64,000 nucleotides of DNA, taken from contig JBNZDD010013687.1 in the NCBI GenBank assembly GCA_050575255.1, positions 661,024-725,023 on the forward strand. The letters are read 5' to 3'. Below, piece by piece: positions 3,413 through 27,335 of the stretch; the stretch's first letter is position 1; the number at the start of each line of letters is the position of its first letter. The notes under the pieces were generated by a model. It saw nothing but the letters and a program-made list of their open reading frames with translations. It ran no database searches and was not told where the DNA came from. The position numbers and the translations under genes were made by a program. The stretch is from Harriotta raleighana. Its lineage: Eukaryota.

Positions 3413-3845
3413 ATACCTTTCCAATGCAGGTATGGGTAGAGCGAAGGGAGTCATGAGAACAAAGCATGTTCAAACCATAGTACTGCTGTCAATAGCAGGC
3501 ATGGCTAAGAACCAGCATAACCCAGAGGAAATTGTAACTACAAGAATTCATAACTGGTCACTTCAGCACTTGGCCTTGACGAACAGTTGGTTAAGAAAGA
3601 GCTACGCTCCATAAACAATATGTGATATGTGCTATACCTTGGAGACAATCTCAATCTTTTTACCATTTTTTAGTATTCTTCCATTTGGAAAACAAACGTA
3701 AATCGTATAAGTCTGCCCCAAAGGGTAGACACCTATTTGAAAAGAAGAAAAAGTCATTTTAATATTGACAGCAGTACTATAGTTTGAACATGCTTTTTTT
3801 CTCATGACTCCCTTCGCTCTACGCATACTTGCATTGGAAAGGTAT
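3413..3845. repeat. Inverted repeat IR1: arms 3413-3494 and 3763-3845, spacer about 268 bp
   Basis: ATACCTTTCCAATGCAGGTATGGGTAGAGCGAAGGGAGTCATGAG... matches the reverse complement of the right arm with about 4 substitutions and 1 indel; also visible as mirrored ORFs MGRAKGVMR/MRRAKGVMR. Confidence 0.95.
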
Positions 3846-4047
3846 GTTTAACATTAAAACTTGTATAATGAGGGCTCCCAAACTGCGGAAAAAAGAGTTG
3901 GGGTGTGACATGGATCAACCATGACAAGCTCATTGGCAGAATGCCTCATTGTTGGATACTTGCCATCTTGAAAAAAGACAAGCTGAACTGTAACCAATTT
4001 CAGTGTAACTGCATTTAAATACTTGGCATCTTTTCTCTATTTGACAG

Positions 4048-4135
4048 GGTCAGGAAGATGCATCGTCAAAGATGTTAGCAGTGGCAGGGAGGAGAAGTTC
4101 TCTTCTTCGTTGTATCCTGTCCTTAATCCACAAGG
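4048..4135 (+). other. Candidate exon (88 nt)
   Basis: Acceptor cttttctctatttgacAG and donor AGG|GTGAGG. Confidence 0.3.
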
Positions 4136-5594
4136 GTGAGGGTTTTAATACCAACCTTACTTACGCACAGTCACTAAATTTTATCAAAACTTTTCAAGTG
4201 CTTTGAGCCATTCTCCATATTAGAGGCGAGATGTAAAATGCAAGGATTATTATTATTATTGTTACTGCTAGGATAGGTTTCAATGGCTATACTGAATCTG
4301 TTGCTTCATAATGAAGAATAAAGAACACAGATGTAAGGTCACCACGTATACCTTGGAGACAATCATACCTAAGTACGAATGGAACTCTACTTGGAAAATG
4401 TGATTTAGCAAGTTTCAAAACTATGCAGTGGTTACTTCTAATATTACTCACTTTCTATGATAGGTCAGCTTGATGTCCAGTGGCAGATAAAGTTTGATTC
4501 CGTTTTAGCCAATTTAGCTCAAAGCACTCATCACATCCACAAGAATGTCCTGAAATTAATTCTGAAATTGATGGGGCAGACAGTTACATAACATTGAACC
4601 AGAATTTTTGATGGAAAGATATGCTCAAAATGAGTACAGTTTTTGGCTTAAGATGGAGATCTGAATTGTCCCTTTGTGTTTATCAACAGCTTTGGCCCTC
4701 ACATGGAATCTACCGACCACCTGTAAATTGTCTTAATTAAAAGTTGCTGAAATCTGGCCTTTTAGCTGCCACTTATTTTGCAGAAAATAGTCCAGACTTA
4801 TGGGCATCCTTGAGTGCACAGGACAATGCCAGGTTCCAGGGCCAATAAATAGATGATCTGAGACTTTTTGGAGCAAAAAAAAGATTTCTAATGCGGTCTG
4901 TGCACGTAGGAGTGTGTCTGAGTGTGCACCTGGGTTCACAGCACAGCAATTGAATGCTGTATATTTTCAAGCAAGACCTCAATGCAGAAAATTAAAATGA
5001 ATTGTCAAAGGTGTGATATACTCTTAAATTCATACATCTATGCTGCCACCCAACAGAAAATAGTTAAAGGAAAGTTTACTTCTGCCAGGATATTTGTAGT
5101 TATGGATCTTGGATTCAATGTTCAAGGACTAGGAAGATTTCACACTCACATTGATGCATAGGATTGTGCTTGCCTGTAAAGCTTCCTTGATCAAAAGGGA
5201 TTATCTTAGATAGACTCACACATGAACAATGGCACGCCGGGTGAATTACTGGAGGTTTGCAAGTACCCATACATCCATACCTCGACTTGTATTTCTCATT
5301 CCACACTTTATGATTTGATTAGTCATAACTTTCACAAGAGAAGGGAAATAACTGAGGAGTTCTCAATGGAACCCGTTCAACCCTTTGCTTTCTGCATTGT
5401 TAAACTCCATCATTATTATTCAGCCCTTGCTATAAATAACCTGCTGACCTTTCCATGACAGCTTGCAGAAGTAATTTATTCCTGGAAGGCTGCAATGAAT
5501 TTCTCAACCCAGTCTCAAATGTCTGCCCAGATTCTGTCTTTCCTTTAGTTATGCTGCGTAGATGAAGTCTTTCTCTAGCTCATACTGGCTCTAG

Positions 5595-5830
5595 GTCTGT
5601 CTCAGTTGGTAGTAGTTCACCTATGAATGGTTCAAGCCTCACATCTGGATTTGAGCTTCTCGTCTAGGCCCTTTACTTCCACTGCACTATACTGCATTGT
5701 TGGAGCTGATGTTATTCAGACAAGATGTTAAACTGATGTCCTGTCTGCCTATTCAGATGGATGCTAAAGTTCTCATGCACTTCCCAAAAAGGAGAAGGTT
5801 CTTCCTCCCGGTGTCTTGGCCAACAATCCG
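5595..5830 (+). mobile_element. Old DeuSINE/SacSINE-like SINE, degenerate
   Basis: tRNA-like head (CTCAGTTGGTAG...GGTTCAAGCC) followed by a Deu-domain-like core AGATGTTAAACTGATGTCCTGTCTGCC...CCCGGTGTCTTGGCCAACAAT. Confidence 0.65.
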
Positions 5831-6972
5831 CAATAACTTCAATTAATTCCCATTGACGCATGGAAGTAGACCATATCAGAATGGAATTCAAGAATGGTTG
5901 GCTTGCTGTATTTCCATTTACTGGAAGAGACAAAGTTGGTGAAATTTAGTTTCTTTATTATAGATAAATACCCCAAATGAGATCACACTCAACATTATTT
6001 TTATACCCCAATGTATTGACTTAACATTTAATATCCTGCAATCGTCATCTGTCCTTTTCTTCACTTGAATCACAGTTCCTTTTGCTATTGTACATTCAAT
6101 TGTTCCTCCATTGAATGTGCCTTGAGTTCTAGCAATCTGTTTTGTTATTCTCCTAGCTTGAACATAAAATGGATTCTTTCTTTACTCCTTGTAACTCTAT
6201 ACAGCTTTCCTGCTCCTCCTCATCATATTCATATTCCAATCAGCTTTCCTTCAATTCATATTTTTACCAGTCCCGCCACTTCCGCTCTAGTTTGAAAAAC
6301 TATTGTTTGTTTCTCTGAAGTGATAATTAAATATCACTTAGATTATTGCTGGTAGCAGGGAGTCAAAAGGACTAAGAAGATTAACTCCTCTCCAGAAGTC
6401 GATTGCATGTCACAATGCCATGCGGTCAAAAAGCATGTGGCTGGAATGTTTGTCCCCAGGGTTACACCAAGAAAAAATAAACCAGTGTCCAAGTTCTGGG
6501 AAAGACTTTCTTAGACGTTCTGTTATGTAGGAAGAAACCTAATGCCACGACCTTTTGATGTAGTGGAGAAATATTTATGTGCACGTCTAGTCTCGCACTG
6601 CCCTCAATGTGTGGGTTGTTCTTATAAACTGAGCCCTTCGTGAGACAGGTTAATTTACTACTGATCCCTTTCTGTTGCTTCTGCGTAAATTATTCAGGTG
6701 CATGCTTGAACCATTTCTGACTTGAACAGGATCTGCTGTGTGGTAAGCAGCAATTTACATGTCAGACTGTAACATTTGGCAGAGTTAATAATCTGCCCAC
6801 TATCCTCATCTTTTCTGTGGTGTTGGAGAGTTTGGACTGCTTGTACAGTATTAGCTGTATCATGCGAGCTTTGGACTCATGCCGAGAATCCCAGGCTCAA
6901 TAGGCAGTCACACTCACATTTTGCCCTAATGAGCACGTTTCATCAGACTTGGCCAGCCAGGTCATCTGTGAA

Positions 6973-7002
6973 ACACACACAGAGAGAGAGAGAGAGAGAG
7001 AG
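6973..7002. repeat. Compound (AC)n(AG)n microsatellite
   Basis: acacacacagagagagagagagagagagag. Confidence 0.95.
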
Positions 7003-7709
7003 GTTGCGGGGCACGAGTAAATCAAGTCAGGTATCAGCCTGACTTCTGAATTTCAGAAAACAGTAATGGGATCACCTAGATATCTGTACAATCTGCTTTC
7101 CCAAGCTGTGAGAAATAAGAATAACGGTTTTACAAAATATTAGCAGTTAATAGATAGATTGAAAGATTAATGCAGACACATTGTGATATTGGACAAATTG
7201 TACAAGCCCGAATTTTCAGCAAGCCACAACAGTACAAAGGCTGTCTGTACCAGACTGTCTTTCATTTTTTATGCAGATGGGTAGTTGCTAAAGTTGATGT
7301 AAATTTTGTCATCTACAATAAGATCATAACACCATGATGAAGGGCTTCCAACTTTCTCAGGGAGAGTATGGCTTTCCTTCTTGTTTTTCCTCTCGATCTA
7401 AATGAGTAATATATAAGGAGTGGGCAGTGCTCTTAACATGGACAAGATATCTCTGGAGTAAAAAGCAAATGTAATTGAAGAGAGAAGTCAAGAAATATCT
7501 GAAATAAACATATGTTCACTGCGAAATATAAAGAAAGGCTCAATGCTCATGCTACATCTTTTGGCAGGTCACCAAAGCATCAACCCCAGCCTCTACATTC
7601 TCTGGTTTGGTGGTCACACGACTGCTCAAGGTTATGTTTAATATATTGAAGTTGCAGTGACCTGAAAATCATAAATAACTTTCACTTACTTTATGACATA
7701 TTTATGGAA

Positions 7710-7832
7710 GATTGCAAATTGGCCGCTGCGTATACCCACAAGATAGTCACTCTACTTTACAGTATATCCTCTGAAGTGCTTGGAGACATCCGCCTGACAT
7801 GAATGGGCTATATGAAATGTAAGAATTGTTTA
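7710..7832 (+). mobile_element. SINE 3' tail remnant
   Basis: GCAAATTGGCCGCTGCG...CTTTACAGTATATCCTCTGAAGTGCTTGGAGACATCC matches the SINE 3' half. Confidence 0.65.
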
Positions 7833-8925
7833 TTGATTTTTCTACTCTGTTCTATTCATCTTTCTGCCATAGGTTGCATTACATTTCATCTGTCTGGGTG
7901 ACAAGGTAGTGTCCACTTTCTCACATATCTTCCATTGAAAAAGCAAACACTATATCACCCTATTTATAGGTTAGAAATTTTAAAGAAGACAGAAATGAGA
8001 AAGGCTATTCACCTCCTCTGCCCCCTTCCTCTCCTCCACCCATCAAACAAGCACCTATCTAATATGTAAAAACTCTCTGAAGGCTAATAAATGGCCATCA
8101 TTTTCAGAAGACATAATCATTGCCGGTGTGTTGAGAAACATTGCTCCATTGACAACTAGGAAATAATAACATCTACTATATAGTTTTCATGCATTCTGAG
8201 CCTTTAAGTGTTATCAATACCAATTAAATAAAATATGATTGTAAAGCACAAAGTTGGTCAGCTTTTCATAATATACTGTAACTATTTTCTGTCCATGTAT
8301 TGTGATACAGACAGTTTGAATGCTCCTTTTGGCAGTACTTATGGTAAACCCAGCTATTAGCTGTCAGAAAGCGCATATTATAATAGCTGTAATGGTTGAT
8401 TAAGGGGAACGTTATGTATAATAACAACCCAGCTGCTTTTTTTTAACCATCAATTTCTGTACCGAGAGTTGTGGCTGTTGCACTTGTCACTGTAAAGCAT
8501 TTTGAAAGATCTTTCTATCTTAATAGAGCTGATTTTCACTTTGTGAATTCGTTTGAATTTTGTCATATGAATGGGCAAAGAAGGGTGTAAATCTAGAATT
8601 AAAAATTGATAGAAAGCAAGACTCCCATTTGATGATGAAAGTAGCTACTGAGATGTAAGAACATTAGAAAGCAGGGAACAAGAAAAAGCCATTAAGCACA
8701 TCAAACCCACTGCTTGCACACAAAACCCAGCTGATCAATGATTTCATTTCAGATGGTTCATCTCCAAGGAAAATATTGCATAAGCTCCCCACCTTACCCA
8801 GGTAAGCAATTATAAGATCCAGAATAGTCAAGCTTCCTCATCTCTTACCTCCCATAGCCTCCTTCCCCACACTGACCTTGTACTGCCAGCCCTAGTAGAA
8901 CAAGTATTCTTGCGTCTCATAGGGT

Positions 8926-9360
8926 ATATTTGTTGCATCTTGTCTCCAGTTACAAGCATGCTCATTCTCAAGTTTAGAGGTCTACAAATAATCAGAGATA
9001 CATTTCAAAAGACCAGGGTATTATTCAGTTTGTTCCTTGATCCTCCAATGTTCTTCAGTAAATAATTGAGGTGTTTTTTTTTGGCCATAATCGATCCTGT
9101 GTAAATCCTGTTTGGATTCTATTTCACACATCTATTATTCAAATATTGTGCTGCTTGAGTCTTTTTAATTTTAAACCTCCGAACGTGAAAGGCATTACCT
9201 TGAGTTCTGCTCTCACAGTCTCCAGTTAAACTGAATAGGTTTCCATATGGCTAGAGGCTATGTAAGTTCAAGCTCTTTTGAAATGCATCTCTGATTGTTG
9301 GTAGACTGCTAAACTTGAGAATGAGCATGCTTGTAACTGGAGATAAGATGCAACAAATAT
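8926..9360. repeat. Inverted repeat IR2: arms 8926-9012 and 9274-9360, spacer about 261 bp
   Basis: ATATTTGTTGCATCTTGTCTCCAGTTACAAGCATGCTCATTCTCAAGTTTAG...CATTTCAAAAGA versus reverse complement: 6 mismatches in 87 bp. Confidence 0.95.
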
Positions 9361-9910
9361 TTTTCAGTCATCACCAACTACAGTTTAATGTGTGGAAAGG
9401 AAATCTGACTGACATTGTTTGGTAATTAACAGACAGCATGACAATTGAATAACAGGATACGTATTCTGATGTATTGCCCTTTCAATTGTATCGGTAGAGT
9501 CATTGCAGAGTCTGTGAAGCACGTGATTACCCAGTTGAAAGAGCAGTCGAGTTCTTTCTGATGCTCATCCTCTCTGCAATTTCTCTCTTTAGTTTTTGCT
9601 CAAATATGGAAGCACGGAAGAACAGTATAAAGTGACTCATCTGTTAGTCGTACCTATCACTTACTTTGGCAGCATTTTGCTATCCCCTCGAGGGTCCAGC
9701 TGAGGTTGGGAGTTCCCAACAAGCAAAACCATGGATATGGTTTAAACCAGTAATAGTCAATCTTTATAATTGGCCAACAACAGTATATTTCTATTCTGAA
9801 ATCAGTTATGTTCTCTTTCAAAGCAATGCTAGTGTGGAATAGAAATGTTCAAACACAGAATACACAGTCATCACTTTACCAGTAAAAATCCTATGATACA
9901 CTTTGGGATA

Positions 9911-10198
9911 ACAATAATAATCCTTGCATTTGATATCGCGCTTTTCACGTCTTCTAGATTTCTCGAAGTGCTGCGTGGAATATATTGTAAAGTGAATTGA
10001 CTGTATATTTGTGGGTGAAACAGCAGTGTCCCACAAACAGTTGTGTATTAAAAGGACCAATTTCTATTGTATTTTTTGAGAGATTATTATCAGGCGTGTG
10101 GAGTAACAAAACATGCCCATGGTTTCGCCCCGCCTGGAATTCAAACCCAGATCTTTAGCCTGCAAGGTGACTGCTCTAACCACTGAGCTACAGGACTC
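9911..10198 (-). mobile_element. tRNA-derived SINE, young family, near full length
   Basis: Reverse complement starts GAGTCCTGTAGCTCAGTGGTTAGAGCA (A box), has a B-box-like GGTTTGAATTCC, and ends TATCAAATGCAAGGATTATT; homologous to 12090-12418. Confidence 0.92.
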
Positions 10199-12089
10199 CA
10201 CAATATCCTCCGAACATGAAAGGCATCATACCAAATATGAAGATTATTGTAATTATTTCCTGTTAACACCAGCCAGTCTTGACACTGTGTAATAAAAACT
10301 GATTTGGTACCTATGATGTCTGCTTACGTTGTTATGGGCCTCCCACAGGATTTGACAGGATTGCTGAGCCTCTCACAACCTGCCGAGCCTTTCATGTGAT
10401 ACCAAAGGGATTTGACTGCAGAGATTAGCACTCTCTTAGGTGATGATTGGGTTGTTCTGTAGTCTGCTGTGTAATACCAGAAGGCCAAAAGAGGCAGAGG
10501 TTAGTCAGAATGTATTGTATGATCTTGAGGAGTCCTGACATTAGGAAGCACCTCCTGCAATTCAGTTGACCACATCTGTCAATCCAGCCTATCCAAGTGG
10601 CCAAACTACAACACTGCTATTAAATGCAAGGTTAGACATATTATTGTGTATACAACGCTAAAGGTTTTACTCCTATGTTAAATATAAGGAGTCATTGTAA
10701 ACAAAGGAGCAAGGGAGCACTTGGAAGGGTTTTGTAATCTGTCAATGTCAGTCCCATGCAAGTGTTTGGTTCCAGAATTATTTTCAGGTCAGGATATTTG
10801 GCACCTGAATTGTATCGTCCATGCCTCCTTGTCTTTCTCCTGTTGAGTGATGCAGGGTGGATTTCTCCTCCTATTCCAGACGAACGGGGAAGGAATCTGT
10901 CCAAGAGAGCAGATTAAAAGTTACAAAGCCCGGAGAAGCGTCAGCGAAAGGCAAGGAAAAGATTAAAAGATGTTAATAAGGTGTCGATTTTAAAAAGGAC
11001 TCGATTTAAAATTGGATTACCGGGCAAGACTTGTGTCTGCCAAACAGTTGACCAAAATCTGTGAAAACATTGTGGTGAAAGAATTCCACTAATCAGCATA
11101 GACCTGAGGATTGTCAATATACATTTTGCGAGCCAAACCTCACCTTAGTCAACACAATTAGACTTTTCTAAGAATATCGTTCGAACTTTACAAATGCAAT
11201 AATTGGTTGGTTTCTCTGCTGGCCCAGTAACTGTACACTCGAGCAATGTTGAGACAGGACATGGCAGTATTTAAATTTAATGAATATATAAAATATCTCA
11301 ATGCAAGCTTTTATAATGAAGTAGTCCTGATAGATTGGGCAAAATTCATGGTTTTCCTTAACATACTCCTTAATTCCTCAACGTACTCCTGTTAATTAGG
11401 GCAAGGAACACTTTAAGGATTACCTGCAGTTCACCTTAATGATTTATTCAATCTTTTAACCATTAGATTCTCCATAACCAAGTAGAGGGAAAAGCAAAAT
11501 GAAGTTGCTCTCCATTATGCAGCCTAGGATTGTAATTGTTCTTTAAAAAAATGTGGGTCTTAGTGGAGTTTAACTAAATGCACTTAATAATCCTCCATTT
11601 CTAATTAAATTGTGGTTTAATAGAAGGTAACTGGATTCAATGATTGAGTTTTTATTGTACTGTAGTATCTATTTTACTGGATGGGGCTTGTTTGTCTGTG
11701 GCTTAGGGCATAAACTGACTGTACATAGCTTGCTGGAAAGAAGATAAGTCAGGAACGCTCCCGTTCAAAGCAAACTCTAATATCGTCTGAACTGTATTTG
11801 TTAATCTCAAAGCTGTTCCCACTGATTGGCAGGTCATGCATGCCCAGAGCTCTTTAACTTCAACATATGATACAGTTGAGGTAAAAAAAATATCTGGCAG
11901 CAAGTTACAGGAGGTAATTCATCTGAATGATTTTGATAAAGTCATAAAGCACTAGAGCAGAATTTGAGCACAGTTGCCATTAGCAGGATCCACAATCAAA
12001 TTATACTCCCTCACAGACTTTTTTTTCTTGATATTTAGGAATTATTCTCTTTTTTTTAAAAGGTTTAATTTCAAAGCCTGTAGAAGAGG

Positions 12090-12418
12090 AGCTCCTGTGG
12101 CTTAATGGTTAGAGCACTCGCCTTGCAAGCATGAGACCTGTGTTCGAATCCAGGCAGTTCAGGGCGAAACCTTGGGCAAGTTTCCTTACTCCACATGCCT
12201 AATAATAATCCCTCCAAAAAACCATAATAATAAAATTGGTCATTTCAATCCATGACTGTTTGTGGGACACTGCTGTGCGCAATTAGCTGCCGCATTCTGC
12301 CCACAAAAATACAGTCAAAATCACTTTACAGTATATTCTGTGAAGCGCTTTGGGACGTCGATAAGATGTGAAAAGCGCTATATCAAATGCAAGGATTATT
12401 ATTATTATTATTATTATT
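12090..12418 (+). mobile_element. tRNA-derived SINE, full length, (ATT)n tail, probable 6-bp TSD
   Basis: A box TGGCTTAATGG, anticodon-loop-like TTGCAA, B box GTTCGAATCC, body ...TGTGGGACACTGCTGTGCGCAATTAGCTGCC..., (ATT)8 tail; AAGAGG at 12084-89 and 12419-24. Confidence 0.95.
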
Positions 12419-12878
12419 AAGAGGTGTCAAGAAATCAGAGGAGGGAGGCAATTAAGATAATAATGATGCCAGGAGGCAATTTCATTTTGTGTGCTGTTTG
12501 ATGCATGTACTATACATAATTGATTTTTGCTTAAATAGTTTAATTTTAATGTTAGCTGTGTGGCTCACAAATTGTCCAGAATGTATGATGATGGTCAGGG
12601 ATATCGTAGAGTCAGATGTCTTTCATACTTTTACTGTTATAGTTTTTGAGAAGTGTTAGTGAAAATAAACAATGCTGCTTCATGGAAAGAGCACTACATG
12701 TGTCCTGCTGTACAATATTTGTAGAGTGAAGAAAACTGTCTGCATACCATGTGAGTGAAAATCTTTTGACTAATCCACAGGTCAGATCCGAGAGTTATTC
12801 AAATATTGCCTCGCACTATGTTCTACTCTTTTTTTTTCTTCTGTGTTCTTTTTTCCCCTTTCCTCCTGCCCCCTTCAC

Positions 12879-12918
12879 CACACACATGCACGCATACACA
12901 CACACATGCACACACACA
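12879..12918. repeat. Imperfect (CA)n microsatellite
   Basis: cacacacatgcacgcatacacacacacatgcacacacaca. Confidence 0.85.
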
Positions 12919-14482
12919 ACTCTTCTTGCTCTGCTTTAGGTTATTTTGACATTCTACTGTATTAACACGAGGATCCTCTGTTACTCTGCCTATGCTTGTC
13001 TGAACTGAAGCATTGACAGACTGTCGGAGCAGCAATGTGATTGAGTCCAATCCTGACTCTATGTACTTCTCCTGGGAGACAATCACTGGGCAGCAATCAG
13101 GAGTGAACATTATCCAATTTCCTCCCTTTACTCTAGGTGATGGACCAGATTATGTCACCATGATTGTTGCCACAGATGCGATAGGATAATTGTCATGGTC
13201 GAGGAATCAAGCCTGTGCTGTATGACTTAGCTGCTCACCAACTAAAAGTAATGTATTGCGAGTTCTTGATGAGGTAAATGAATTCTGTGCAAACATGTTG
13301 CAAATTTTAGTTTGATGGGAGTTATTCTATGCGACTAGCGGGTTGTGATTTTTGGAAGTGTTCTACAGCAAAGCAATTTTGAAAAACTCGACATTACAGT
13401 AATTCCTGTGAAGCTCTTTGGGACATCCTCGTGATGTGAAACACGTTTTATCAAATGTAAGGATTATTATTATTCATGACATAAATATTTTCTACCTATG
13501 TATATCTACATTTTCAGCATCAAATAAGATTTGTCGTTTGTCTTCTCTTGGCTCCCTCCTCCCAGCATTGTGTTTGAAAATTTGACTCATTCGGATTAGG
13601 TTCCGGTTTCAAAATTATTTCTGTTGATTAGAAACAATAAGTCTCAAAGCACATTAACACTCACTGAGAATTTCCGCCTTCGAGCTGAAAATAGACTTAT
13701 GTTGTATTCTCCTCAACAGTTCCTTAACCAGTCAACATTCTATGCTGGATTCCTGCGGCTTTTAGTTAATTAGTTGTGTATTTTTGGGTGGTACTTTGTT
13801 AAAAAAAAAATCAGAAAATCTATAATGAAGAAAATATATAAGGTGTGTCAGTAACTGCTGACAGTGTGATTGTGTGATTGTGGGCATATTGTTGCAGCAT
13901 TGTGGTATGTTACAGAATGATGAGATGCGGCTTTGTGTCTCTGATTGCCCACAGTGAATGTCTGATCACAGGCTGTGATGTTAGTTACCCAACAACTTCA
14001 CAAAAGCTCCCTATAGAGAGTCAACATCATCGAACAGTCTGCCTTTCAGTGCATTGGCAATAAACTGGGGATTTTCTTGGCTTCTAGGTTTCTTGGGTTT
14101 GTGTTGTCAACAGTTTGGGTTTATGATAAGCTGTCTTGACCTGCATCAGGAAATGAGCTGAGCTGGTGTGTTCTTGCAAATTGTTTTTGTGGCAGTGTTG
14201 TTCCACACTGTGGTGGCTGTGGTGAGTATGGTAAGCGTGCTTCTGCTTTAGATGAAGTGGATGCCATGAAAAAAATCCACTAGGTGACCAGTCTGCCACA
14301 ATCAAAATATTGAAGCACTTGTGACTTTGGGAAAGATGAGAACTAAGAGTTTCACAAGTGCATTCCACAAAGCAAAATAATTTTGAGGGGAATGCAGGCT
14401 AGAAGATGAAAAATCATGTAACTCACATTTCTTAAATTGCTTTTCAAATCTCTAACCCTAGAACGAGACTGTGAACAATATC

Positions 14483-14563
14483 CATTTAATATATAATCCT
14501 TACATTTGATATAACGCTGTATCATGTTGTTGAGATATCTCAAAGCGCTTTTACAGAATATAC
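14483..14563 (-). mobile_element. SINE 3' tail remnant
   Basis: ATAATCCTTACATTTGATATAACGCT...CTCAAAGCGCTTTTACAGAATATACT is the reverse complement of the SINE tail. Confidence 0.7.
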
Positions 14564-16025: not shown

Positions 16026-16563
16026 GCCTTGCTCGCTCAGTGCTCACCCCTTGCTCAAAGTCCCACAAAGGTCAACAATTTTGTTTATTGGTGGTGGTAA
16101 ATGCCAAAATATCTTCCAGCAAATGTATTTCCCACACGGAAATATATTGACATCAGTGACGCTGCTCAGTGGGTAGGGAACAACCTCAGCAAGAGTAGCT
16201 AGAGGTTGTTCCCTACCCACTGAGCAGCGGAACGTTTGGCAGCCAAAGATCCAAACCTTAAACGCCAGCATCAGAATTTTTGTAGGCAAGTGTGTGTTTC
16301 CATAAGATGGTAGTCAGTCAGTTCTTTTCTAAACAATCAAACATAATTCCTGGAAATGGCTAGAACTGGAAGCCCTTCATGAAATGTGCCTCAATGAATA
16401 ATGCCCAGCTGTTCATTTTCCAAAGTTGCACAAGTTTCCTGAAGTGGAATTCGTATCATTTCAGTTTTCACTTTTATTTTATTTCCGACCAATTTCCCTT
16501 CTATAATGTTTCTCCCCTCTGCTGAAGGTATTTTACTCCTTTGTCCTACCGTTGGTGTGTGAT

Positions 16564-16735
16564 TCTTTGGGTTTCCAGTGGTACCTTTACCAAATGGCTA
16601 TCATTTATTCATTGAATGATGAAAACCCTGATAGTAAGTGCTCGCCAACTATTGNTCTTTGGGTTTCCAGTGGTACCTTTACCAAATGGCTATCATTTAT
16701 TCATTACCCTGATAGTAAGTGCTCGCCAACTATTG
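16564..16735. repeat. Near-identical tandem duplication joined at an N (probable assembly artefact)
   Basis: TCTTTGGGTTTCCAGTGG...CGCCAACTATTG occurs twice, differing by an 11-bp indel, with an N at the junction (16655). Confidence 0.9.
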
Positions 16736-18011
16736 AACCACATAGATATTGCATTCAACCACAGGAGCTTATCTTTATCCTCATCCAACAGTAACGCAAA
16801 AATGCACCTTCTAGCAATGGATTTTGGATCGTGATCAGCAGCAGGGGCTACTGCTGAAATTTCTTTCTCTAACTCATGGATGATGAGACCAGTTGTTGGC
16901 TCATCCACTAAGTTCATTTAGGTCAGCACACTCACCCCAGCATTTTCACACTCAAATTTAGGATTGCAAACATATGTTCTAGTGCTGCATTGCCTTTGCT
17001 TATAAGGCCATCGGAAGATGTATATCTAGATAGACAGATTGCAATGTTGATACGGCATTTAGTATTGGGCTATGATGAATTTTTTTCCAAGATAATTTGT
17101 TTTTCCATAAAGGAACTATACATTTCTAATCAAAGTGGTATGAGCAAAGAATATGATCTGTCTTGCAATTTGTTTCCACCTTCTTTTTCAAAAAAAAATC
17201 TGGTTTAAATTTAAATTTGGCAGATTATTAGCAATGTGTTCAATCTAAATAATATTTTTGAGGTGTTAAAGCTTTGAAAAGACCCTGGCCTTTTGTCTTA
17301 ATAGTTCGTTTTTGTCCTTTCCAAACGATTGGCACAACTTCAGGCAATCAGTGATCTCATTGCACTCTGGCTGACATTTTTTAAGCAGAGTGCTGAAGCT
17401 ATAACATAAGCAAACTGTAAAAGGCCAGATGCATTCACTCTTTGCTATCTGTACTTCAGTTAAAGATGAACAGTTAACAGCGCTGTGCCAATGTCTGAGA
17501 AAAGCTTCTCATGTCAGAATCGTATCAGAAAATGAAAGGATTTTTATAATCTGTGCTCCATGTGATTGGGTTTGGGGAGATTTAACACACTAACTTTTAC
17601 TAATAGGGGCAAATCCTCATGGAATTGGTGTTCAAACAATGAAATCTCACTGATCGGATACATCAGATCAATGTGAATTACATTGGTTAATTGGTATAAT
17701 TCCATTTTAAATATGATATCTACTTTGTAAGAGATAGGGATTTTTGTAAAGTATAAGACTGATTGTTTTGCAGCAACTTCATAAAAACAATGTACCATGA
17801 AAAGAATAAGTACGATGGCCATTACTTTGCCTTTTAAAATATGAAGTCCACCAGAGCTGAAAGTCTAGTAGAGATGGTGTGATATATAATGAAACATGTA
17901 ATGCTAAGAAAAATTAAAACCTTAGGGCAGTTCTCTTTTATGAATACTGTATTCCCATCAGAAAGCATACACATCCTGCAATGCAGTTGAGTATATCTGC
18001 AAATGCAAATC

Positions 18012-18067
18012 CTGGGACATCCTCATGACATGAAAGGCGCTATACAAGTGTCATTTTGTTGTTGTTG
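18012..18067 (+). mobile_element. L2 3' tail remnant
   Basis: GGGACATCCTCATGACATGAAAGGCGCTATACAAGTGTCATTTTGTTGTTGTTG. Confidence 0.7.
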
Positions 18068-18384
18068 ATGGCATTTCATTGGGATTGGAACTGAACAGTG
18101 ATGCATTCCACCAGATCTTGAAATTGCTTTTAATTATATCCACTCCTTTGGGGGAATCGGAGTTAAATGCTTGAGGAATTTCAGCAATGCCAATAAGATC
18201 AGAAATGAGGCCACTTACAGATAACGTTCAGCTGGAGGTTTCTTCCATGTTATAAGTAAATTATTAACAGACGATTGTATATCAAATGACATTAGCAAGT
18301 GTATAGGTTCATTAGTTATCTACGCGGTATTTAAGATGTTAAACAATACAAATAGCTTGAGCTAGTTTGGCCTGACTATCCAAA

Positions 18385-18445
18385 TAACAACAACAACAAA
18401 ATTACATTTATAGAATGCCTTTTATGTTGAGAGGACATCTCAAGT
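18385..18445 (-). mobile_element. L2 3' tail remnant
   Basis: (CAA)n AAATTACATTTATAGAATGCCTTTTATGTTGAGAGGACATCTCAAG. Confidence 0.7.
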
Positions 18446-19029
18446 AACTCTCAACTGCAAAGAACATGTAGCCTTGCTGCATTAGCAAGTTGCAATATTT
18501 GACGTTACTCATTCAGGATTTGGACTACCATCACTTCCCATTAAAAATCCTTTTATGTTTTACTTTGCGTGTTGGTGATCTGCCCATGCTCCAACTGTTT
18601 GAATAGTTGAATAGTCAAACACTCTGGGACGCTACCCTCCATGAGGTGTGCAATATTGTTGTCTTGAATTACGTTAATTCTCTGGCTTCCCATGTTTCCA
18701 ATTTTAATCAGATTCGCCACCAAACAGAGAGGGAGAGAGTGAAGAGGATGTGCTTAGGCTATTGGATGACTGCAGTATTGGTTAGCGTTCACAACTTGAG
18801 TTGCACTCTAGCCAACTATTGTCTGGCCACATCGGAGCATTGTGCTGGGTTTCAACATCATCTCAATGAGAGACCATGCTGTGTGTGGTCTGGGAGACTA
18901 TCAAATGGAATTTTACTACACTCAAAGTCGAATAGAATATAAAAGCAAGTTCATGTCTTCTCAATTTCATGTACATCCTCAAAGGAATGATGCTATATTT
19001 TGTTCAATTAGATTTTCTTTTTGCCATTG

Positions 19030-19215
19030 GTAATCACTTTAGTTCTCAGCTTCTCTCTTCATATACTTGAGCTCAAAGTTGTGGAATCATCCAGGCTGCA
19101 TTTCTCTAAATCCTCTCTGACAAATTAACATTTCCTTAATTTAACACCTTTTGAAGATGAAGTGCCCGAAATATTTGAACACTCCAAATGTGGTCTCAGC
19201 GATGATCTCTATCAG
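19030..19215 (-). mobile_element. Degenerate CR1 LINE fragment
   Basis: ...AACACTCCAAATGTGGTCTCAGCGATGATCTCTAT resembles the antisense of the CR1 Y..LVRPHLEY coding region. Confidence 0.45.
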
Positions 19216-22200
19216 GTTCAAAACAAATTACAATTAAAAGTTATTCTGCTGCATCCAAAGGCATGATTTGCTGTGCTCAGTAGAGTACATTCACAGAACA
19301 CCATCAATTGAAACTGACTGCTTCACACTGACTGGCTACTTTCGTAAAGTTGAAGAAAAATACACCGAAGAAAGAAAAGTTTTGAAATGCGAGTGGGGGG
19401 AAATTTTTTTTTGCATCTTGTTAATACGATACTGTACAAACTGTGGCACTTTATGTTTAAATAAGGCCTTTCATGTAAAATCAATTCTCAAATATTGATG
19501 ATATTACTAATTGCTGTTCTCAAAGGATTCACTTTGTGAGTTCACTGGCAGCTTACTTACCACTGTTCTCAGAGACCACAATCAAACATCCAGTTTATAT
19601 CATCTCCACATGTCAGTACACACCCTTGAGAGTTTTTGAGGGAACAAAATATGCAATTCTGAATTGTTGAAACCCTTAACTGTTGTGCTAAAATGCTAAG
19701 ATCTATAAGCAGAAGTTAACACTTGCAGCTTTGGTACATCGATTGGATGTCACTGGGGACCGCAACATAATGAACAGGGCAGGTCACTTGTGGAATTCCT
19801 TACATATCTCACGGACTTTATAGAGTATCACATGTTTACACCACTTAGTAACCTAAAGCCCACAAGGATTTCTGTTGTCAAGCTGTAACAGTTCAAGAAT
19901 CTCCACTCCTTAATATAGGATCTTTAACATCCACTTGAACAACATATACACATCCTTAGTTTAGGACACCTTGACTTAAACATAGGCCCTTCAATAAGGC
20001 AGCACTCACTCCTTACTTCACTGAACCTAAAATATGATCTTGGGTTTTTGTGTGGGGCCCAAAACCCTGTTCTGTACAGTAATAATAAGAGAAAAACAAT
20101 GGAGTAGGGCTAAGAGGCAATTAACTTTTAAGTTTCTTTAAGACTTTTGTCAAATCTCCCTTCCTCCTACAGTATATTGCTTTGAGAGCGATATGAAGCA
20201 ACAATGAGAGATCAGACACAGAGGAGCTCTAAATTACAGGTCCAGAATAACTGGTTTCAAACAATGAAGTAAAGACTTGTAATCTGTGACCACTCATTTC
20301 AAACTTTATAATCAATAATGATCATCAAATTAAATTACTGTAGTTTGAAAATAATGGATCACTCGTACCTGACATTCAACAGTTGGGCCGGGCCAAATAC
20401 AGGTTTACACTCAGAACTTGCATGAGTTAATTGCTTCATATTTTTCTGGTTTCTAGTTCCCGGTCCAAGCAAATTTAAATAAAAGGACCTTTATGCTGCT
20501 TTGCTTGTAAAATGCATGAAATGTATTGAAATTTGAGGTAAAAATAACCGCTACTTTTTTAAAAAAAAAAACGTTTCAGGGGAATGAGTGAAGAGAGGTG
20601 TTCTGTCTTTCCTGCTCAAACTGTACCTCTCCTGCCCGCCAGTTGTACAAACACAACCTTGCACATTCCACACTCTGTGGAATGGAGGTGAGAAAAACCA
20701 CAGAACAAGCCTCATTCAGTGCCCACAATTTTAATCTCCTGTGTGAGGACAAGCAGCAGGCTGTCATTGCCCTTGGCTGATCAGATAATTTTACTGGCAT
20801 TTTTTTTTGCCTCAGCTGGTGATCTATATCTCAGTACAGGGTCTGATAACACACCCATCATTCCTGGTGAATAGAGGTGAATAGATGTTGCTCCTTAGGT
20901 GGCATTTTCGTAAGCACCAGTGCCAGGGCAGACTACTACACCTGGAGACCAATGCTTTTGTGTGTTAAAGATCTATAGAGAAGGTCTGTTGGAAGGCACA
21001 CAGGTTAAAATGGCAAGAAAAACAGAACCTACAACATAAAGTATGGATGAGGAACAAATAGCTTTGACACTGATGTACTGTTATTCACATTTTCTAATTG
21101 ATAGATCATTTTCAAATATTAAATGTCTTTGCATGTGAATTTAGTTTTTTATTGCAATTTGTAGTGACCTTCCATTAGGTCAGGTTATTGGTGTAGTTGC
21201 TCAACACCTGTGATGTTCGTTCGCTGCATTAGAGGAACCTGTGCATCCTGATGTCTTACAAACTACACTGGCAATGTGGATTGGAATAGAAAAACAATGC
21301 ACAATCTCAGCCATAGATTATTGTGGTACATTGACAAAGTCGATAAAGAGATGAAAGAAAATGATTCATCTTCATTCAGCATTTGAGTTTCAATCGATAG
21401 AAAAACTGAAATCCATAATTTGATGATTTTTGTGATTTCTCAGTCGTTTGTCCAACAAATTCTATGTTAAGCTCAGTTTAGCCCAGAGTATTTGAGTTCC
21501 ACCCTCCTTCCCAGAGTGCAGCAAATGGGCTGCTCTCTGGGAAATAGCTGAGTAGGAGGAGTTCCCGGGCTACAAATCCGAAACATCGCCACAAGTGAGC
21601 ATCACAGCATTGCGGATGGCTGCCTAAGCCATTTTGAAAAGTTTATTTTTGCTTTCCAGTTCATATATTGTGTTTGTTCCTACCGCCCAACACTAAACCA
21701 TCTTTTCAAGTTATCCTTATTTCAGAACATAGGATGTTCCAACTTGTAGGAAGTTCCTGCGATGTTACTTGGGTCATCTTGATTGGCCAGGGAGGAGATG
21801 GCTTTCCCCACATAGGTTTTCCTTCCATCGTCTGCCTCTAGATGTCCCTATGAGACCAGCAAACCTCAACCCCAGGATTTTTGGAAATGTGACTTTGACA
21901 CATTTGACTGGAGTTCAAACTCGCATTTCTTATTTGGGGAGTTTAACACAATAGTATTCCAGATGGGCCATCTTTAAATCGATTCCAATGTATAATAATA
22001 ATAATACTTAGATTTATATAGTGCTTTCCATATCTTATCAACGTCCCAAAGCACTTTATAAGGCTGGCTGTTCATTTTGCAAATAACAAGTACATCGGTA
22101 ATGTTTTAATAACACTCACTAGTGAAGCTTAACACAGCTAAATCTTTTGGTGCATTTTGCCAGAGAGAAGAATTAAGAGGAACCTGGAAATGGAAATATG

Positions 22201-24549
22201 ATGATATAAATCTAATGAGGTTAATTAATGAGGTTTCAATCCTATAATATAATGTTGATTCATTTGCTTCATTATCCCATTTTCTCCCCCCAAACAAGCT
22301 TTTAGTTTTGTTCAATGCCAACTCACAAAACAAAAATTAAGCATTTTTGAAAACAGTAATTTGAATTATTTAGTATTTTTGAACCTCATGGATTTTAGCA
22401 ATAAACATTACCATGATATCCTGATAAGTAAGTGTTTGTTATGTGAATGTGCTACAACCTAAAATTATACTCATCAGCACAACTACATGTGTACAATCAT
22501 TTGTTTTCGTTTGCATATCACTGCAATGGACTCTCCTTTGCATTATATAATTGCACCACTAAATTTAGATTGACTTGTAGGCTCTGGATTAAAGCAAAAG
22601 GCAAAGGAAGGATCCATCCACCAAAAGGAAAGCTTCCTTTTACCATACCAGACAGTGCGCTATGTGTATCCTGATATGCAAACTGAGCAGACAATGTAGA
22701 TTGAGTAGAAGAATAATGAACAATCACAATATTAGATTATCATATTCAAAGCCAGGTTTGTGAATGCTGGTTGCGTTCAACATGGGTCGAAATATCATGA
22801 ACAGTTTTTTCAGCACTTTGTCGCTTTGATCTTGTGCAACTTTATCAACATTTTGGAATCCCCAACCTAAACTGGAAGATAGCTTTTACACTGTATCTAT
22901 CTAATCTAATTCGCCTGCTCTCTCCATTACTCTTTTATAGTGTTGGAACCATTGTTAATTGGAAAGGATTTAGCGAGCAATGTTTTGCCAGATCAACTGA
23001 CCACAGTATAATCTAAAGCCCTTCAGGCACAACAGTTTCACTCCAGAGACTCTGCCAGCATTTGACTAAGAATCTCTCTGCTTCCTTTCAGACCAGTTAC
23101 TCAATGGTACCATTTAATTACATTTCAGTCTCCGAGATTTTAGGATATTACTTTATTTCATCTCTCCTCTTGTTCTTTTCAAGCCTCCTCAAAACTCATT
23201 AAGTTGTTTCAAAACCTAATGAGAGCCCTCAATAAAAGAAGTTGTTGTTTTTTGCTTGCTGCTGTTTATTTTTTTCCTGAACAAAAATACTGTGTCTCAG
23301 TTAAAGAGATCTGCAGGAGACTGTGCTTCATTCTGTGCAGCGGGAATGCTAAATCACTTCCACGAGTCTCCTGGGTCTTCCTGGTGGCTTAAAAAACACA
23401 TCCTTCGCAATATACAGATCTCGTTGTGTATGTAAAGGATTTATTTTTTCTGAATGTATTTTCAGGATGATTGCAAATAGAACAGAGATTTAGAATCTTC
23501 TCTTCCCCAATTCTTAGTCTTTTTCTCCTGAATGCTTTCACTGCTCCTTGAGTGTCATCACTCATATGCTTTGCCCAGATGCCCATGCAGCATATCCTGA
23601 ACCCAATCTGTGAGTGTAAGAGGCTATTCAACCATGGCAGCATCACTGCCAAGCTTGATCTTGTCTATTTCATCCGATATTCACAAATGCACTTTCCATC
23701 GGGAGTCACTGAGCAGCAATCACAAATGGAAACCCCGGCTGCTTATTTTTCCACCTCCTTATCCCAGGGTTATTGAGGCCAAGCCTTTCGAAAATGTCCA
23801 CTAAATTGCCCACAGTCTATTATTTACTGTGTCCAGTGGTTTATTGAGTTAGGTCTCTCTGCTCCAGCTGGAAAGTATTTACTCAGTTCTTGTGTCAGTA
23901 TTTAGTGTGGCATCTTAACAAAATTGATCATTCCTTCAGCCTTTCAAATTGATGGAAGTCCGGTGATGTCCATGCTATTTTTCGTTACAAGAAGATTCTC
24001 ACAGGTTGGGTGTCAGCCAGGAAGTAAGTAAGTAAAGGGAATGAAAAAATCAACAACTTAGATTTAGAATAAGGTTTCCAGAACATTTCAACTAGCCTCC
24101 CATTATGCTGTGGTCTTATCCAAGCATTGCAGGATTTCAACGCCAGTGTTTACATAATCAAATGCCACTTCCAAACCAAAGTTTCATTTTCAATCATTGT
24201 CACAAGGGAGAATGGTTGACCACACCCCAAGCCAAGCCTCTGAGATCCGTAAAACTCTGTGGCACACGTTCACTCATTCTTTTTACAGGATCGCAACTAT
24301 GATCTGCCACTCACTGACAAAGTTTGGTTATATTCTTGTAAAAATAAGCGAGTTAGAAATGTTCTTTCTATCCTTTTGCAGAAACTCTTCAGTATGCTTC
24401 AGTATAAATGAGTCACCATATAATTTTGGACTTTTCCACCATGTCACCTCTCACAGGTTTTTGCATAAGATCCTTGTCCAGGAGGGTAAATTTATTGAAG
24501 ACTAAAGGATCAGAGCCCGAGCTTCTGACTTTATTAAGAACTGTAGCTC

Positions 24550-24710
24550 CACGTAAAGATTGTTTGTGGGATACTGCTATATACAACTGGCTGCTGCATT
24601 TCACATACAAAATACCACTCAACTCACTTTACTTTATATCTTGTGAAGCACTTTGAGAAGCCTCAATGACCCAATAAGGCACTAAATTAAATGCAATTAA
24701 TTATTATTGA
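24550..24710 (+). mobile_element. SINE 3' half remnant
   Basis: TGTTTGTGGGATACTGCTAT...TGTGAAGCACTTTGAG...AAATGCAATTAATTATTATT. Confidence 0.7.
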
Positions 24711-26781
24711 GGATTTAATTAGAATAAGATGAGAATTGTGCAGAAAGGGTCAGCTTCTGAGACTGTGAAATGGACAATGCTCCTTTACCTCCGAACAGAG
24801 TTGAAGGATGCAATTTGGATTGAGATTACATTTTGCCTGAGGTCAAAAATGGAACGATCGCATTTTGCCCCCAATGTCAACTTAGAACCCTGCCAGAAGG
24901 CACAACATACAGAGTGAAGCTTCCTCTCGTCTGCCCTAAGAGTTCAATTCCGGTGAAGGGTCAAACCTATTCGGATGTGAAAGGTGCTATGCAAATGTAA
25001 TCTTATTGTTGTTGTATTTCCATCAATCCTGTTTTAGGTGTCTAGCATCTGCAGGTTTTCTTTTGATTTCTACCATTATTGAGATAGTTTGCTTCACTTC
25101 GTAGGTTCAAAACCTGAAGAAGTTGACCTTAGAAATTGCTGTTCAGGCACTTCTGAAACCAATATCCAGTTTAACTGGAGTTTGGCATTTTCAAGTTTAA
25201 TATTCTGGTATTGTGTTTCTCTCCCAAATCTAGTTAAACAAACAGTTATTAGTTTTGTATATAATATTAGCAGTGCTTGTTCCTTTATTTGAGGTAGTTT
25301 TTGACCTCTTCCCAGTAGACCACTATTTTGGAAAGGGTATGACCCACCTCATTACTGTAACCAAAGTAATAAATGACGAACACAAGCCTCCCAATCAGTA
25401 TATTTTAGTAAATCTGTCAAGCAGCTTGTTTCAGTTTCCTGACTCAGGCTCCATTGGCATTATAAATATCACAAGAATGAAAATACATTTCAACAACGCA
25501 GCCTTTTGCTAAGTACCAGGGAGATTGATGTGCTCTCCACTAAAGTCACACATTCCTGACCTACCAAATGAGAAACTGAAGCAAGGGTGTGTCTGTTGCC
25601 AATAGAAATGCCACCCATGTGGCTTTAAACTGGACAGTCTGCCTTTTTGGAGGATTGGGCTGTCTACAAATTTCTGAATACTAGGCACCAAAAGTCTGGA
25701 GGGGGTATTTCAAATGGAAAATTGTGTCGCCTCCTTCGCCTGTTAATTTACCATCTATATATGTCAGAGGCTTGGTTATTAAGAATTCCAATTAATTTTC
25801 ATCAGCAGCAAAGTAAACATTAGGATTGAGACGATGGTCCTTTACTTGGTCCCTGCCTCCTGCTTACACTGGGACTTGGCAGAAGGTGTTCCTCTCTAAT
25901 GACCAGTGATGTTAAAAAAGGGTTTATTGTTTCATTCCCAATAAAGTATGGAGTTCCAACTTTACTTCTATAACAACACATAAAGCTATTCCTTTTGAGC
26001 TGTGAGGGAGCTGTTTGTAAAATCCTAGTGCCTACCCTCCTGAATGGATTTTCAAGGTGATACAAATGTACAAATATCTTTGTAAAACATGTATATTTTC
26101 CATCTTTTAAATAATAACATACACACATCAATAATGGCAATCTGAATGATGTATAGGCTTGGTTCTGAGAATAAACAACCAGCAGATAAGAGCCACGTAT
26201 TGCAGTATTTACCTAAATATATTTTGTATTATGTTGCTATAAACACATGCTAATATAACCAAAAGACTATGCTATCCATATATATTTAAAGAAGAAGAAA
26301 GATAACAAGGGATGGGAGCAAAATGCAAGTCAAAATAACAAAGCAGAATTCTTCTGTCAACAGAATTCAGTAATGAAGCTATCGGTAATAGAGCTGAAGC
26401 GAGGGGATCCTAAGACATTCAACATACCTGGAGGGAAGATAGGTAAACAACTTTGTGAGGAGTGAAGTAACTTAAAGACAAGGACATACTGTAAGGTTTA
26501 GTCAAATTATTAGGTTTATTTTATGTTTAATAAGAAAATCAATGTGTATAATATTTCGTATAACATTAGAAATTTAGGTATAAAACTGAGAAGGCTGCAG
26601 AGTTGCAGAAAAACAGAAATGAATGTAGCCAGGTTTGCACCAGTTGCAATAGATATGATAAGTGTGAAGGGCGAAGAACAAAAAACATCTTCAGTTAAAG
26701 ACATCAATATAGCTACTCTTTCCCTTCTCAAGAGTGGGAAGTCAGGGGGTAATACCGAGGAGGCAGACAAAACAGACGTGG

Positions 26782-27335
26782 GCAGATGGGGAGGTGTTTT
26801 ACATTAAGATACTTTGTGAAAACATGAATGTTTGAGAATCACGCTGCTAGTCAAGATATGGAAAGGGCTAATGAAAAACATGCCAAGGATCACCAAGAAT
26901 CAGGAGGATGACCAATGAGGGAATAATCACATGTAAAGGGGTTTTAGAGTAAGCAAGGCTAGTGGAGAAGTATAAGAATAGGAGGGAAAGAGTGGCTCAA
27001 TACAACAGTTGGGGGAATAGCTCAAGTTGGAAGCCAAGATCTCCAGCCTGCCACTGTTGACCAGAACTACTGGAATGGGTAGTTGATTTCAGTTGTTTTA
27101 CAGGCAATGAATGGTTAGTTACAGAAGCAAGCACCTGGTCTTACAATTAGTGAATAGGCTAAACAGAGCATGAGATTGGTGCTGTTGTATGCTGTATGTC
27201 CCGAGTTGCATGGGGTTGTTATCTGTGACTGGAGGTTTCAGTGTTAAGGGCTACAAGGTATCTTGACTAGCAGAGCAGTCCTCAAACATTCCTGTTTTCT
27301 CAAAGTATTGTATCGTAAAACACCTCCCCATCTGC
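26782..27335. repeat. Inverted repeat IR3: arms 26782-26858 and 27259-27335, spacer 400 bp
   Basis: GCAGATGGGGAGGTGTTTTAC...CTGCTAGTCAAGATA versus reverse complement: 11 mismatches in 77 bp, no indels, outer 21 bp perfect. Confidence 0.93.

Follow-up and report, generated by a model that had tools for sequence, protein, structure and literature searches.

Three inverted repeats in the window

The window, a stretch of 64,000 nucleotides from the Harriotta raleighana genome, contains three inverted repeats (IR1, IR2 and IR3), whose arms and component parts are collected in Table 1. They were reported in a first-pass annotation and are real, as seen from their arm identities and from comparison of the window with itself by BLAST, which recovers them with E-values of 2e-28, 1e-30 and 4e-18, respectively, far beyond chance. 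The same comparison yields no matches among the three regions, in agreement with the earlier remark that they share no sequence. At IR2, run X1 (record 7, 8746-9053) crosses both junctions of the left arm with 1 difference, which argues against an assembly artefact there, X1 being possibly kin of the assembly's source.

A scan of 110 open reading frames of the window (50 of the 106 of at least 75 aa and 60 of the 231 of 52-74 aa) produced only a weak RVT_1 match and a sub-cutoff match to DUF3848, and an Rfam scan gave three SINE-derived tRNA-like matches only, none of them at the arms. The first-pass annotation envisaged the arms, if transcribed, as dsRNA stems that may serve as putative ADAR or Dicer substrates. 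The predicted fold of IR1 (-190.7 kcal/mol, z -16) is that expected of any such repeat, and the arm pairs of IR1 and IR2 are not conserved in a relative, termed B. Nothing in these sequence comparisons points to a function for the three pairs.

Table 1. Inverted repeats of the window and the parts of which they are composed
Feature	Position	Strand	Description
IR1	arms 3413-3494 / 3763-3845		78/83 columns identical; spacer 268 bp
IR1 inserted copy (acceptor)	3413-3494	-	reverse complement of 3763-3845; missing in relative B; 78/83 to donor
IR1 spacer	3495-3762	+	ordinary single-copy DNA; in B collinear, same strand as left flank
IR1 donor (original copy)	3763-3845	+	found in contig 18 of B and, in C, in record 10 (3575-3938)
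IR2	arms 8926-9012 / 9274-9360		81/87 identical; spacer 261 bp
IR2 target duplication of 7 bp (AGGGTAT), left copy	8921-8927	+	its final 2 nt are shared with the arm as microhomology; single copy at the empty site of B and C
IR2 inserted copy (acceptor)	8926-9012	-	reverse complement of 9274-9360
IR2 2-nt filler and right target-duplication copy (9015-9021)	9013-9021	+	from sequence compared with the empty site
IR2 donor (original copy)	9274-9360	+	within B and C contigs 9049-9800
IR3	arms 26782-26858 / 27259-27335		66/77 identical; spacer 400 bp
Solo-LTR-like repeat copy hosting IR3	26490-27450	+	begins with TG; CA at the end of the family; sister copies flanked by a 4-bp duplication
IR3 donor	26782-26858	+	internal LTR segment about 290 bp from the LTR start, not terminus; aligned in 6/6 sisters
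IR3 inserted copy (acceptor)	27259-27335	-	76 alignment columns; 3-nt microhomology at inner junction

Empty sites and polarity

At IR1, contig 18 of B aligns with positions 2702-3414 of the window, continues with 7 letters and then resumes at 3494-4257, such that the spacer and right arm are kept collinear and the left arm alone is missing. Judged by letter count, about 7 target letters are replaced at the junction relative to this empty site. At IR2, B joins 8926 to 9049 through 31 letters that share homology with the right flank; here too the left arm alone is missing, with spacer and right arm collinear, and a second relative, C, confirms this, its loose ends continuing straight into the same right flank. 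The anatomy of the IR2 junction comprises a 7-bp target duplication, a 2-nt filler and a 2-nt microhomology. Relative to B, the spacers of IR1 and IR2 are not inverted.

IR3 is polarised by sister repeats. Its host belongs to an LTR-like family with 1310 first-look candidates and a shared extent of about 910 bp, and the right arm alone is missing in all six aligned sister copies, one of which (L011) has a 22-base internal gap in the donor segment. Among the matches listed, the other 39 full ones to IR3 all end at or before query position 484 of 554. An LTR subfamily carrying the insertion was considered and rejected, as the junction 22-mer is unique in the genome at up to 1 mismatch, a search that diverged copies could escape. 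The two arms of IR3 are no closer to each other than to several sister LTRs (each arm matches L015, for example, at 69/77 positions), and another LTR copy, rather than the local donor, may conceivably have been the source.

Since the empty sites lack one arm only, each pair consists of a donor and an inverted inserted copy. The original segment is accompanied by a reverse-complement copy of about 80 bp, which was inserted at a distance of 260-400 bp and cost hardly any target sequence; the extra arm is the left one in IR1 and IR2 and the right one in IR3. Whatever the mechanism, the three pairs are very probably locally templated insertions. The first-pass annotation had offered, as the second of two options, that each locus gave rise to an inverted copy of local DNA within a few hundred bp, and the empty sites bear this out at all three loci. 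Two of the analyses that it proposed point the same way: B lacks the left arms of IR1 and IR2, and C likewise at IR2, while in genome searches the IR1 22-mer (up to 2 mismatches) and the IR2 22-mer match at their own two arms only, marking both as single-locus, local duplications. The annotation, which matched none of the pairs to the SINE, LINE or Tigger families of the window, needs correction on one point: IR3 lies in an interspersed repeat, a multi-copy LTR that includes its donor and is invisible from the window alone.

In aligned blocks B differs by 64/713, 67/764, 306/4693 and 52/752, i.e., the relative is about 7-9% diverged. The arms of IR1 and IR2 differ by 6-7%, at or just below the divergence to B, as expected of neutral decay since about the split from it. 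B and C have many differences from the H. raleighana genome in common and thus act as one outgroup lineage; the junction comparison is based on B at IR1 and on both at IR2 (of two further runs, X13 had too little depth and X11 lay off the junctions). A single outgroup lineage, and an arm divergence near that of the species, would also suit a greater age of IR1 and IR2, with the precise deletion of one arm in the lineage that B and C share; at IR2 the deletion would have run between the 7-bp direct repeats. This history is highly improbable, however, as it requires two independent exact single-arm deletions and the sister copies of IR3 show that its extra arm was gained; even so, the pairs would remain templated insertions, merely older. 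We infer that the extra arms were gained in this lineage and not lost from the relatives. Micro-inversion by staggered breaks, a model in which the spacer is inverted relative to the outgroup, was rejected, the spacers being collinear in B and in the sister LTRs. The remaining option of the first-pass annotation, according to which the pairs are non-autonomous DNA transposons (MITEs) with long TIRs and no relation to one another, has only the outward geometry in its favor. Yet the genome searches gave no second copy and no dispersed two-armed copies; the empty sites miss one arm instead of a whole element; the outer flanks differ and show no duplication around the whole unit, that of IR2 flanking one arm only; and the donor of IR3 lies in the interior of an LTR. 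The empty sites and the lack of further two-armed copies refute this option, the probability of which is vanishingly small.

Geometry and density across the genome

The pairs were compared with a sample of 1.8 Mb elsewhere in the genome. Unique inverted pairs in the sample number 15 at 100-1000 bp apart versus 3 at 1-9 kb, and the class is thus genome-wide and distance-limited; direct and inverted copies number 23 and 9. The first-pass annotation had proposed a recurrent geometry, with arms of about 80 bp and spacers of 260-400 bp, and had staked it beforehand on an arm-length peak near 80 bp. There is no such peak outside the window: none of the seven simple inverted events of less than 1 kb has arms of 70-95 bp (range 34-176, median 47), and three of the seven have spacers of 250-420 bp, within a span of 148-888 bp. 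The proposed geometry is thus not borne out, the arms showing the very outcome that the annotation had named as refuting it. Three events fall in the window where 0.3 would be expected, a modest excess in a window that was itself selected. A regional hotspot was considered and rejected, the flanking 200 kb containing 1 simple inverted event (L026), about background.

Repeats cover 36% of the DNA. Of 25 simple duplications, 13 have a repeat edge no farther than 30 bp away, compared with 4.0 in a same-locus null, which ignores that copies inserted into repeats create edges; with this repeat coverage, about 11 are expected by estimate. A census of interrupted repeats began with at least 1669 raw interruptions, of which 7 rows passed the filter and 2 were kept as clean events. 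Four of the rows left out (L093, two of L148, and L183) are 443-751 bp long, 100% identical and likely tandem or assembly duplicates, and L072 is not a clean interruption. The resulting density, 2 in about 0.63 Mb or 3.2 per Mb (95% interval 0.4-11.5), hints at more events here than in human or zebrafish, for which 0.62 and 0.19 per Mb, respectively, are given (Pace et al. 2009, PMC2671141).

Possible routes of insertion

Three independent repairs of germline double-strand breaks are the probable route of the three insertions, and to judge from the junctions the repair may have been of the SDSA type. Fold-back at a resected break is likely. A germline double-strand break would be resected to at least 350-480 nt, and the resected 3' end would fold back on its own strand for intrastrand priming, with the spacer as the loop. 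The folded end would then be extended by a polymerase, copying about 80 nt, and rejoin the other break end, and the inserted copies would subsequently decay neutrally. The insertions carry no polyA tail. Fold-back, interstrand invasion and a fork template switch would leave the same sequence product. Fold-back insertions at breaks have an experimental precedent in yeast, where they range from 10 to >150 bp, with 0-5 bp of microhomology at the rejoined end; an imperfect repeat of 10 bp served for priming there, and the loop measured 41 nt (PMC11724301). The loops here are larger (260-400 nt) and the inner homology is shorter (0-3 nt at the inner junctions, with filler at IR2), which speaks against fold-back.

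Two other routes should be weighed against break repair by fold-back. In fork template switching (FoSTeS/MMBIR), a stalled nascent strand jumps through microhomology, copies about 80 nt and returns; its template would be nearby single-stranded DNA of opposite polarity, giving the same product of an inverted insertion with microhomology (PMC8421209), and two multi-switch clusters of the sample (L058, L096) look like iterative switching. No direct test distinguishes it from break repair, yet the 7-bp target duplication of IR2 is more simply a filled-in staggered break, and this route appears unlikely. The same duplication would also suit an abortive retrotransposition in which a LINE endonuclease made the breaks and fold-back remodelled them, leaving a target duplication without cDNA. 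L1-induced break ends do yield local inverted duplications that keep this feature (bioRxiv 10.1101/2024.12.14.628481), and a fourth pair in the window adjoins a truncated retroelement end. IR1 and IR2, however, have no retroelement sequence at their junctions, the nearest repeat edges being 351 and 532 bp away, and the retroelement-associated route that the first-pass annotation had envisaged finds no support there. Moreover, no target duplication is evident at IR1, short duplications are listed at 6 of 39 proximal events for which this route is not invoked (PMC2671141), and the apparent enrichment at repeat edges is confounded. An origin in LINE cuts is thus quite improbable.

Taken by themselves, the three loci carry little weight, being lineage-specific non-coding scars of a described class. 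A broader reading, which is doubtful at present, is that the genome holds thousands of short locally templated insertions, at several times the density reported for primates or zebrafish. Most donors would lie less than 1 kb away, and abortive LINE cuts would have seeded some of the insertions. Fold-back of germline break ends would then have left an extended fossil record that informs on resection length and on the choice of pathway. The scale in such a reading is about 5 inverted events per Mb, or roughly 2,500-10,500 genome-wide. If a whole-genome count upheld the density, donor distances would become a read-out of germline break processing in this vertebrate lineage.

Comparison with known systems

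Doublets are reportedly mostly same-strand and defined by exact matches, whereas IR1-IR3 are inverted and 6-14% diverged. These doublets, or short paired duplications (Thomas et al. 2004), are described by Pace et al. as local two-copy duplications, for which imperfect break repair was proposed (PMC2671141). Local fold-back inversions of yeast (Yu et al. 2024, PMC11724301) and MMB-TIs (PMC8421209) likewise place an inverted nearby copy at a break with short microhomology, and both also occur as human germline variants. The yeast events are mostly 5-34 bp with a 41-nt loop (PMC11724301), compared with 80 bp copied from 260-400 bp away in the window, a distance that also puts the three inverted pairs beyond the template range of MMBSearch, which is within 100 bp (PMC8421209). 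In the inverted duplications at L1 break ends, a self-annealed 3' overhang primes the copy and the target duplication is kept; those examples come with an L1 insertion (bioRxiv 10.1101/2024.12.14.628481), yet IR1 and IR2 carry none. A literature search did not find this class in chimaeras or sharks, which does not in itself establish its absence from print.

The closest likeness is to the repair-mediated duplications (RDs) of Pace, Sen, Batzer and Feschotte (2009), insertions that measure 50 bp or more and derive from a donor less than 5 kb away (PMC2671141). Their hallmarks are an empty orthologous or sister-repeat site, lack of polyA, neutral decay, and junctions with 2-9 nt of microhomology, filler, a 1-15 nt deletion or a 4-21 nt target duplication (PMC2671141). 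The copies in the window measure 77-87 bp, and their donors lie 268, 261 and 400 bp away, within the range of 50 bp to 5 kb on the same chromosome. Empty sites exist for IR1 and IR2 in the outgroup and for IR3 among sister repeats. The junctions agree as well: IR2 combines microhomology of 2, filler of 2 and a duplication of 7, fitting the 'MH+TSD+Filler' row of Table 1 in Pace et al., IR3 has microhomology of 3, and IR1, with about 7 letters replaced, fits the deletion rows (PMC2671141). IR1 and IR2 have a single other copy, as the filter of that survey demands. The donor of IR3 is multi-copy, and IR3 behaves like an RD of the 'interrupted repeat' kind yet would fall outside the published list; the authors themselves acknowledge that this filter limits what their method can detect (PMC2671141). 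Compared with the RD averages, the three insertions are shorter (mean 162 bp) and closer to their donors (mean 1.2 kb), yet within range. The main text of that study gives no orientation statistics, uses 'inverted' 0 times and presents one opposite-orientation example (supplementary Table S1 may hold orientations), and the survey it describes includes no cartilaginous fish (PMC2671141). The present cases thus have a modest value, in that three polarised inverted examples with base-level empty sites take RDs into this group. IR1-IR3 are most likely repair-mediated duplications, the products of a described, ordinary process and not a new element.

Results

The three inverted pairs and their copy number

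The three inverted pairs named by the first-pass annotation (IR1, IR2 and IR3) are all present in the window, and its description of them as mutually unrelated is borne out, as no similarity was found among them. Their copy number in the genome (1.10 Gb in 13,732 contigs), which it had proposed as a check, separates IR1 and IR2 from IR3. IR1 and IR2 are single-locus, each with one candidate in the whole-genome search, and genome-wide matching of one 22-mer per arm, at a tolerance of 2 mismatches, located only the pair's own two arms. The host repeat of IR3 is multi-copy, with 1310 candidates in the genome, 40 of them scored. The other 39 full matches listed all stop no further along than query position 484 of 554, and among these matches the right arm re-matches the left-arm segment only, on the opposite strand.

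Coordinates of inverted pairs in the window and of the nearest recognised genes (gene positions refer to 10-kb stretches sampled right of the window)
Feature	Location	Strand	Spacer (bp)	Identity	Window E-value	Distance from window
IR1	3413-3494 / 3763-3845		268	78/83 columns	2e-28	
IR2	8926-9012 / 9274-9360		261	81/87	1e-30	
IR3	26782-26858 / 27259-27335		400	66/77	4e-18	
Fourth inverted pair (28 bp)	28934-28961 / 29371-29398		409	100%		
Rhodopsin-family receptor ORF, single-exon, 552 aa	L026:3576-5231	-				~44 kb right
Ryanodine-receptor 3' exons	L031:2354-6719	-				92-97 kb right

Comparison with related species

Neither the IR1 nor the IR2 pair is present in relative B, one of two sequence sets of related species compared with the window. 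At IR1, one B contig (run X5) aligns over 2702-3414, continues with 7 letters and resumes from 3494 to 4257, crossing the spacer and right arm with the strand unchanged. At IR2, one B contig aligns up to 8926 and resumes at 9049; base-level comparison shows the 31 intervening B letters to be homologous to the IR2 right flank, and the second set, relative C (run X10), passes from 8927 directly into that same flank. This reading of B and C implies a 7-bp target duplication in the window (8921-8927 and 9015-9021). It also implies that nothing was deleted and that the outer IR2 junction has 2 nt of microhomology, the inner one 2 nt of filler. The IR2 left arm is spanned by run X1, near-identical to the window, with a single difference. 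B and C count as one outgroup lineage, since many differences are common to both. The window differs from B at 64/713, 67/764, 306/4693 and 52/752 positions, and the arm divergence of 6-7% places the origin of IR1 and IR2 around the split from B or shortly thereafter.

The host of IR3 belongs to a repeat family of ~910 bp and is regarded as solo-LTR-like, because the alignment shows a TG start, a CA end and 4-bp flanking duplications in sister copies. Against 6 aligned sister copies, an insertion of 76 columns is confined to the window copy; it is the reverse complement of an LTR-internal segment lying 400 bp upstream. None of 7 sister loci examined carries this inverted pair. The junction sequence is unique genome-wide. 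Microhomology of 3 nt marks the inner junction, and the outer one has ~2 additional letters. The arms are as distant from each other as from the six sister copies aligning over the full segment (61/75 to 69/75), which makes IR3 similar in age to the LTR insertion. By the same distances, its donor may have lain in another LTR copy.

Local pairs outside the window

A census outside the window covered 180 stretches of 10 kb, a non-random sample from large contigs, in which repeats marked by all-against-all BLAST covered 36% of the DNA. Local pairs (arms <20% repeat-covered, score >=45 bits, gap >=50 bp) numbered 48 and formed 37 clusters, 32 simple (9 inverted, 23 direct) and 5 complex, counts that low-copy repeats unseen in the 1.9-Mb sample may inflate. 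Inverted pairs were far more numerous at 100-1000 bp than at 1-9 kb (15 versus 3), so that the closeness of the donors is a genuine feature. The shared ~80-bp arm geometry claimed earlier did not hold here: the 7 simple inverted events below 1 kb have arms of 34-176 bp, none at 70-95 bp, and spacers of 148-888 bp, 3 of them within 250-420. Seven simple events and 2 complex clusters give an inverted-event density of 5 per Mb (95% interval 2.3-9.5); at that rate 64 kb would hold 0.32 events, and at least 3 would occur with P ~0.004-0.007. Because this feature was the reason for choosing the window, and 1 inverted event of this kind lies in the 200 kb flanking it, the clustering of the three and their similar arm lengths are read as mainly selection.

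Other local duplications and palindromes

In a fourth inverted pair, the right arm adjoins a minus-strand retroelement fragment (~29198-29373) at the fragment's truncated end, and this pair may be a young templated copy that arose at a retro-insertion. Zero-spacer imperfect palindromes occur in the window at 16160-16229, 52435-52581, 33731-33774 and 21508-21543, and 17 unique palindromes of similar type were seen among the first 100 non-window stretches. Old direct duplications lie at 53217-54686 (153 bp at 74%, 209 bp at 75%). Elsewhere, local copies in direct and inverted orientation lie several together in complex clusters (L058:5400-6271, L096:5476-7085, L052:7379-8761; copies 94-100% identical in the first two) that resemble chained template switches. 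At L039:1414-2101 and L072:6527-6889 the other end of a retroelement fragment is joined directly to an inverted copy that takes in the upstream flank and the first 27-35 fragment bases. Long direct duplicates (440-870 bp, 99-100% identical, 0.8-4.4 kb apart) in L093, L148, L183 and L103:6251-9102 reflect either recent duplication or redundancy in the assembly. Of 25 simple local duplications outside the window, 13 lie <=30 bp from a repeat edge, against a same-locus null of 4.0 that is confounded by insertions into repeats.

Discussion

For the insertions it is established which arm is donor and which acceptor, that the spacer is not inverted, that almost nothing of the target was lost and that the junctions are of repair type. 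A break at the acceptor site would have been followed by resection; the 3' tail of the donor-side end would fold back and prime at the donor inner edge, and ~80 nt would be copied before release and joining to the other break end, the loop corresponding to the spacer. Such a route is documented in yeast, with inserts of 10 to >150 bp and a 41-nt loop (PMC11724301), and is proposed at L1-cut ends with the target duplication retained (bioRxiv 10.1101/2024.12.14.628481). The filler at the IR2 inner junction leaves no visible priming homology, which counts against the simple fold-back version. Interstrand invasion (SDSA) would give the same product, as would a fork template switch (PMC8421209), and either may be the route.

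Nothing supports a role for the three inverted pairs. The RNA of IR1 has a strong predicted stem (-190.7 kcal/mol, z -16), the same being expected of any such repeat; Rfam returned nothing at the arms, and the 110 window ORFs scanned gave no coding families except a weak reverse-transcriptase fragment. The nearest recognised genes are a 7TM receptor and, farther to the right, the ryanodine-receptor exons.

Pace et al. 2009 give the density of repair-mediated duplications (RDs) per Mb of repeat DNA as 0.62 for human, 0.19 for zebrafish and 0.08 for chicken (PMC2671141). For an analogous count, 5 of 7 filtered rows were dropped, leaving 2 clean interrupted-repeat events, in which a local copy is inserted inside an interspersed repeat (L056, L079). 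These amount to 3.2 per Mb (0.4-11.5) in ~0.63 Mb, with P 0.06 at the human and 0.007 at the zebrafish rate, a higher density that is a hint only, because the two counts were made by different methods and old events would stay visible if substitution is slow in this lineage. IR1, IR2 and IR3 are three independent, locally templated inverted insertions, ordinary members of the known RD class. Pace et al. 2009 describe 824 human RDs within 5 kb, averaging 162 bp in length and having junctions of 2-9 nt microhomology, 1-15 nt deletion, 1-68 nt filler and 4-21 nt target duplication (PMC2671141). On that description IR1 and IR2 share all testable features of the RDs, IR3 departs from them at the single-copy filter only, and IR2 fits the 'MH+TSD+Filler' row, which holds 2 of the 39 proximal cases there (PMC2671141).
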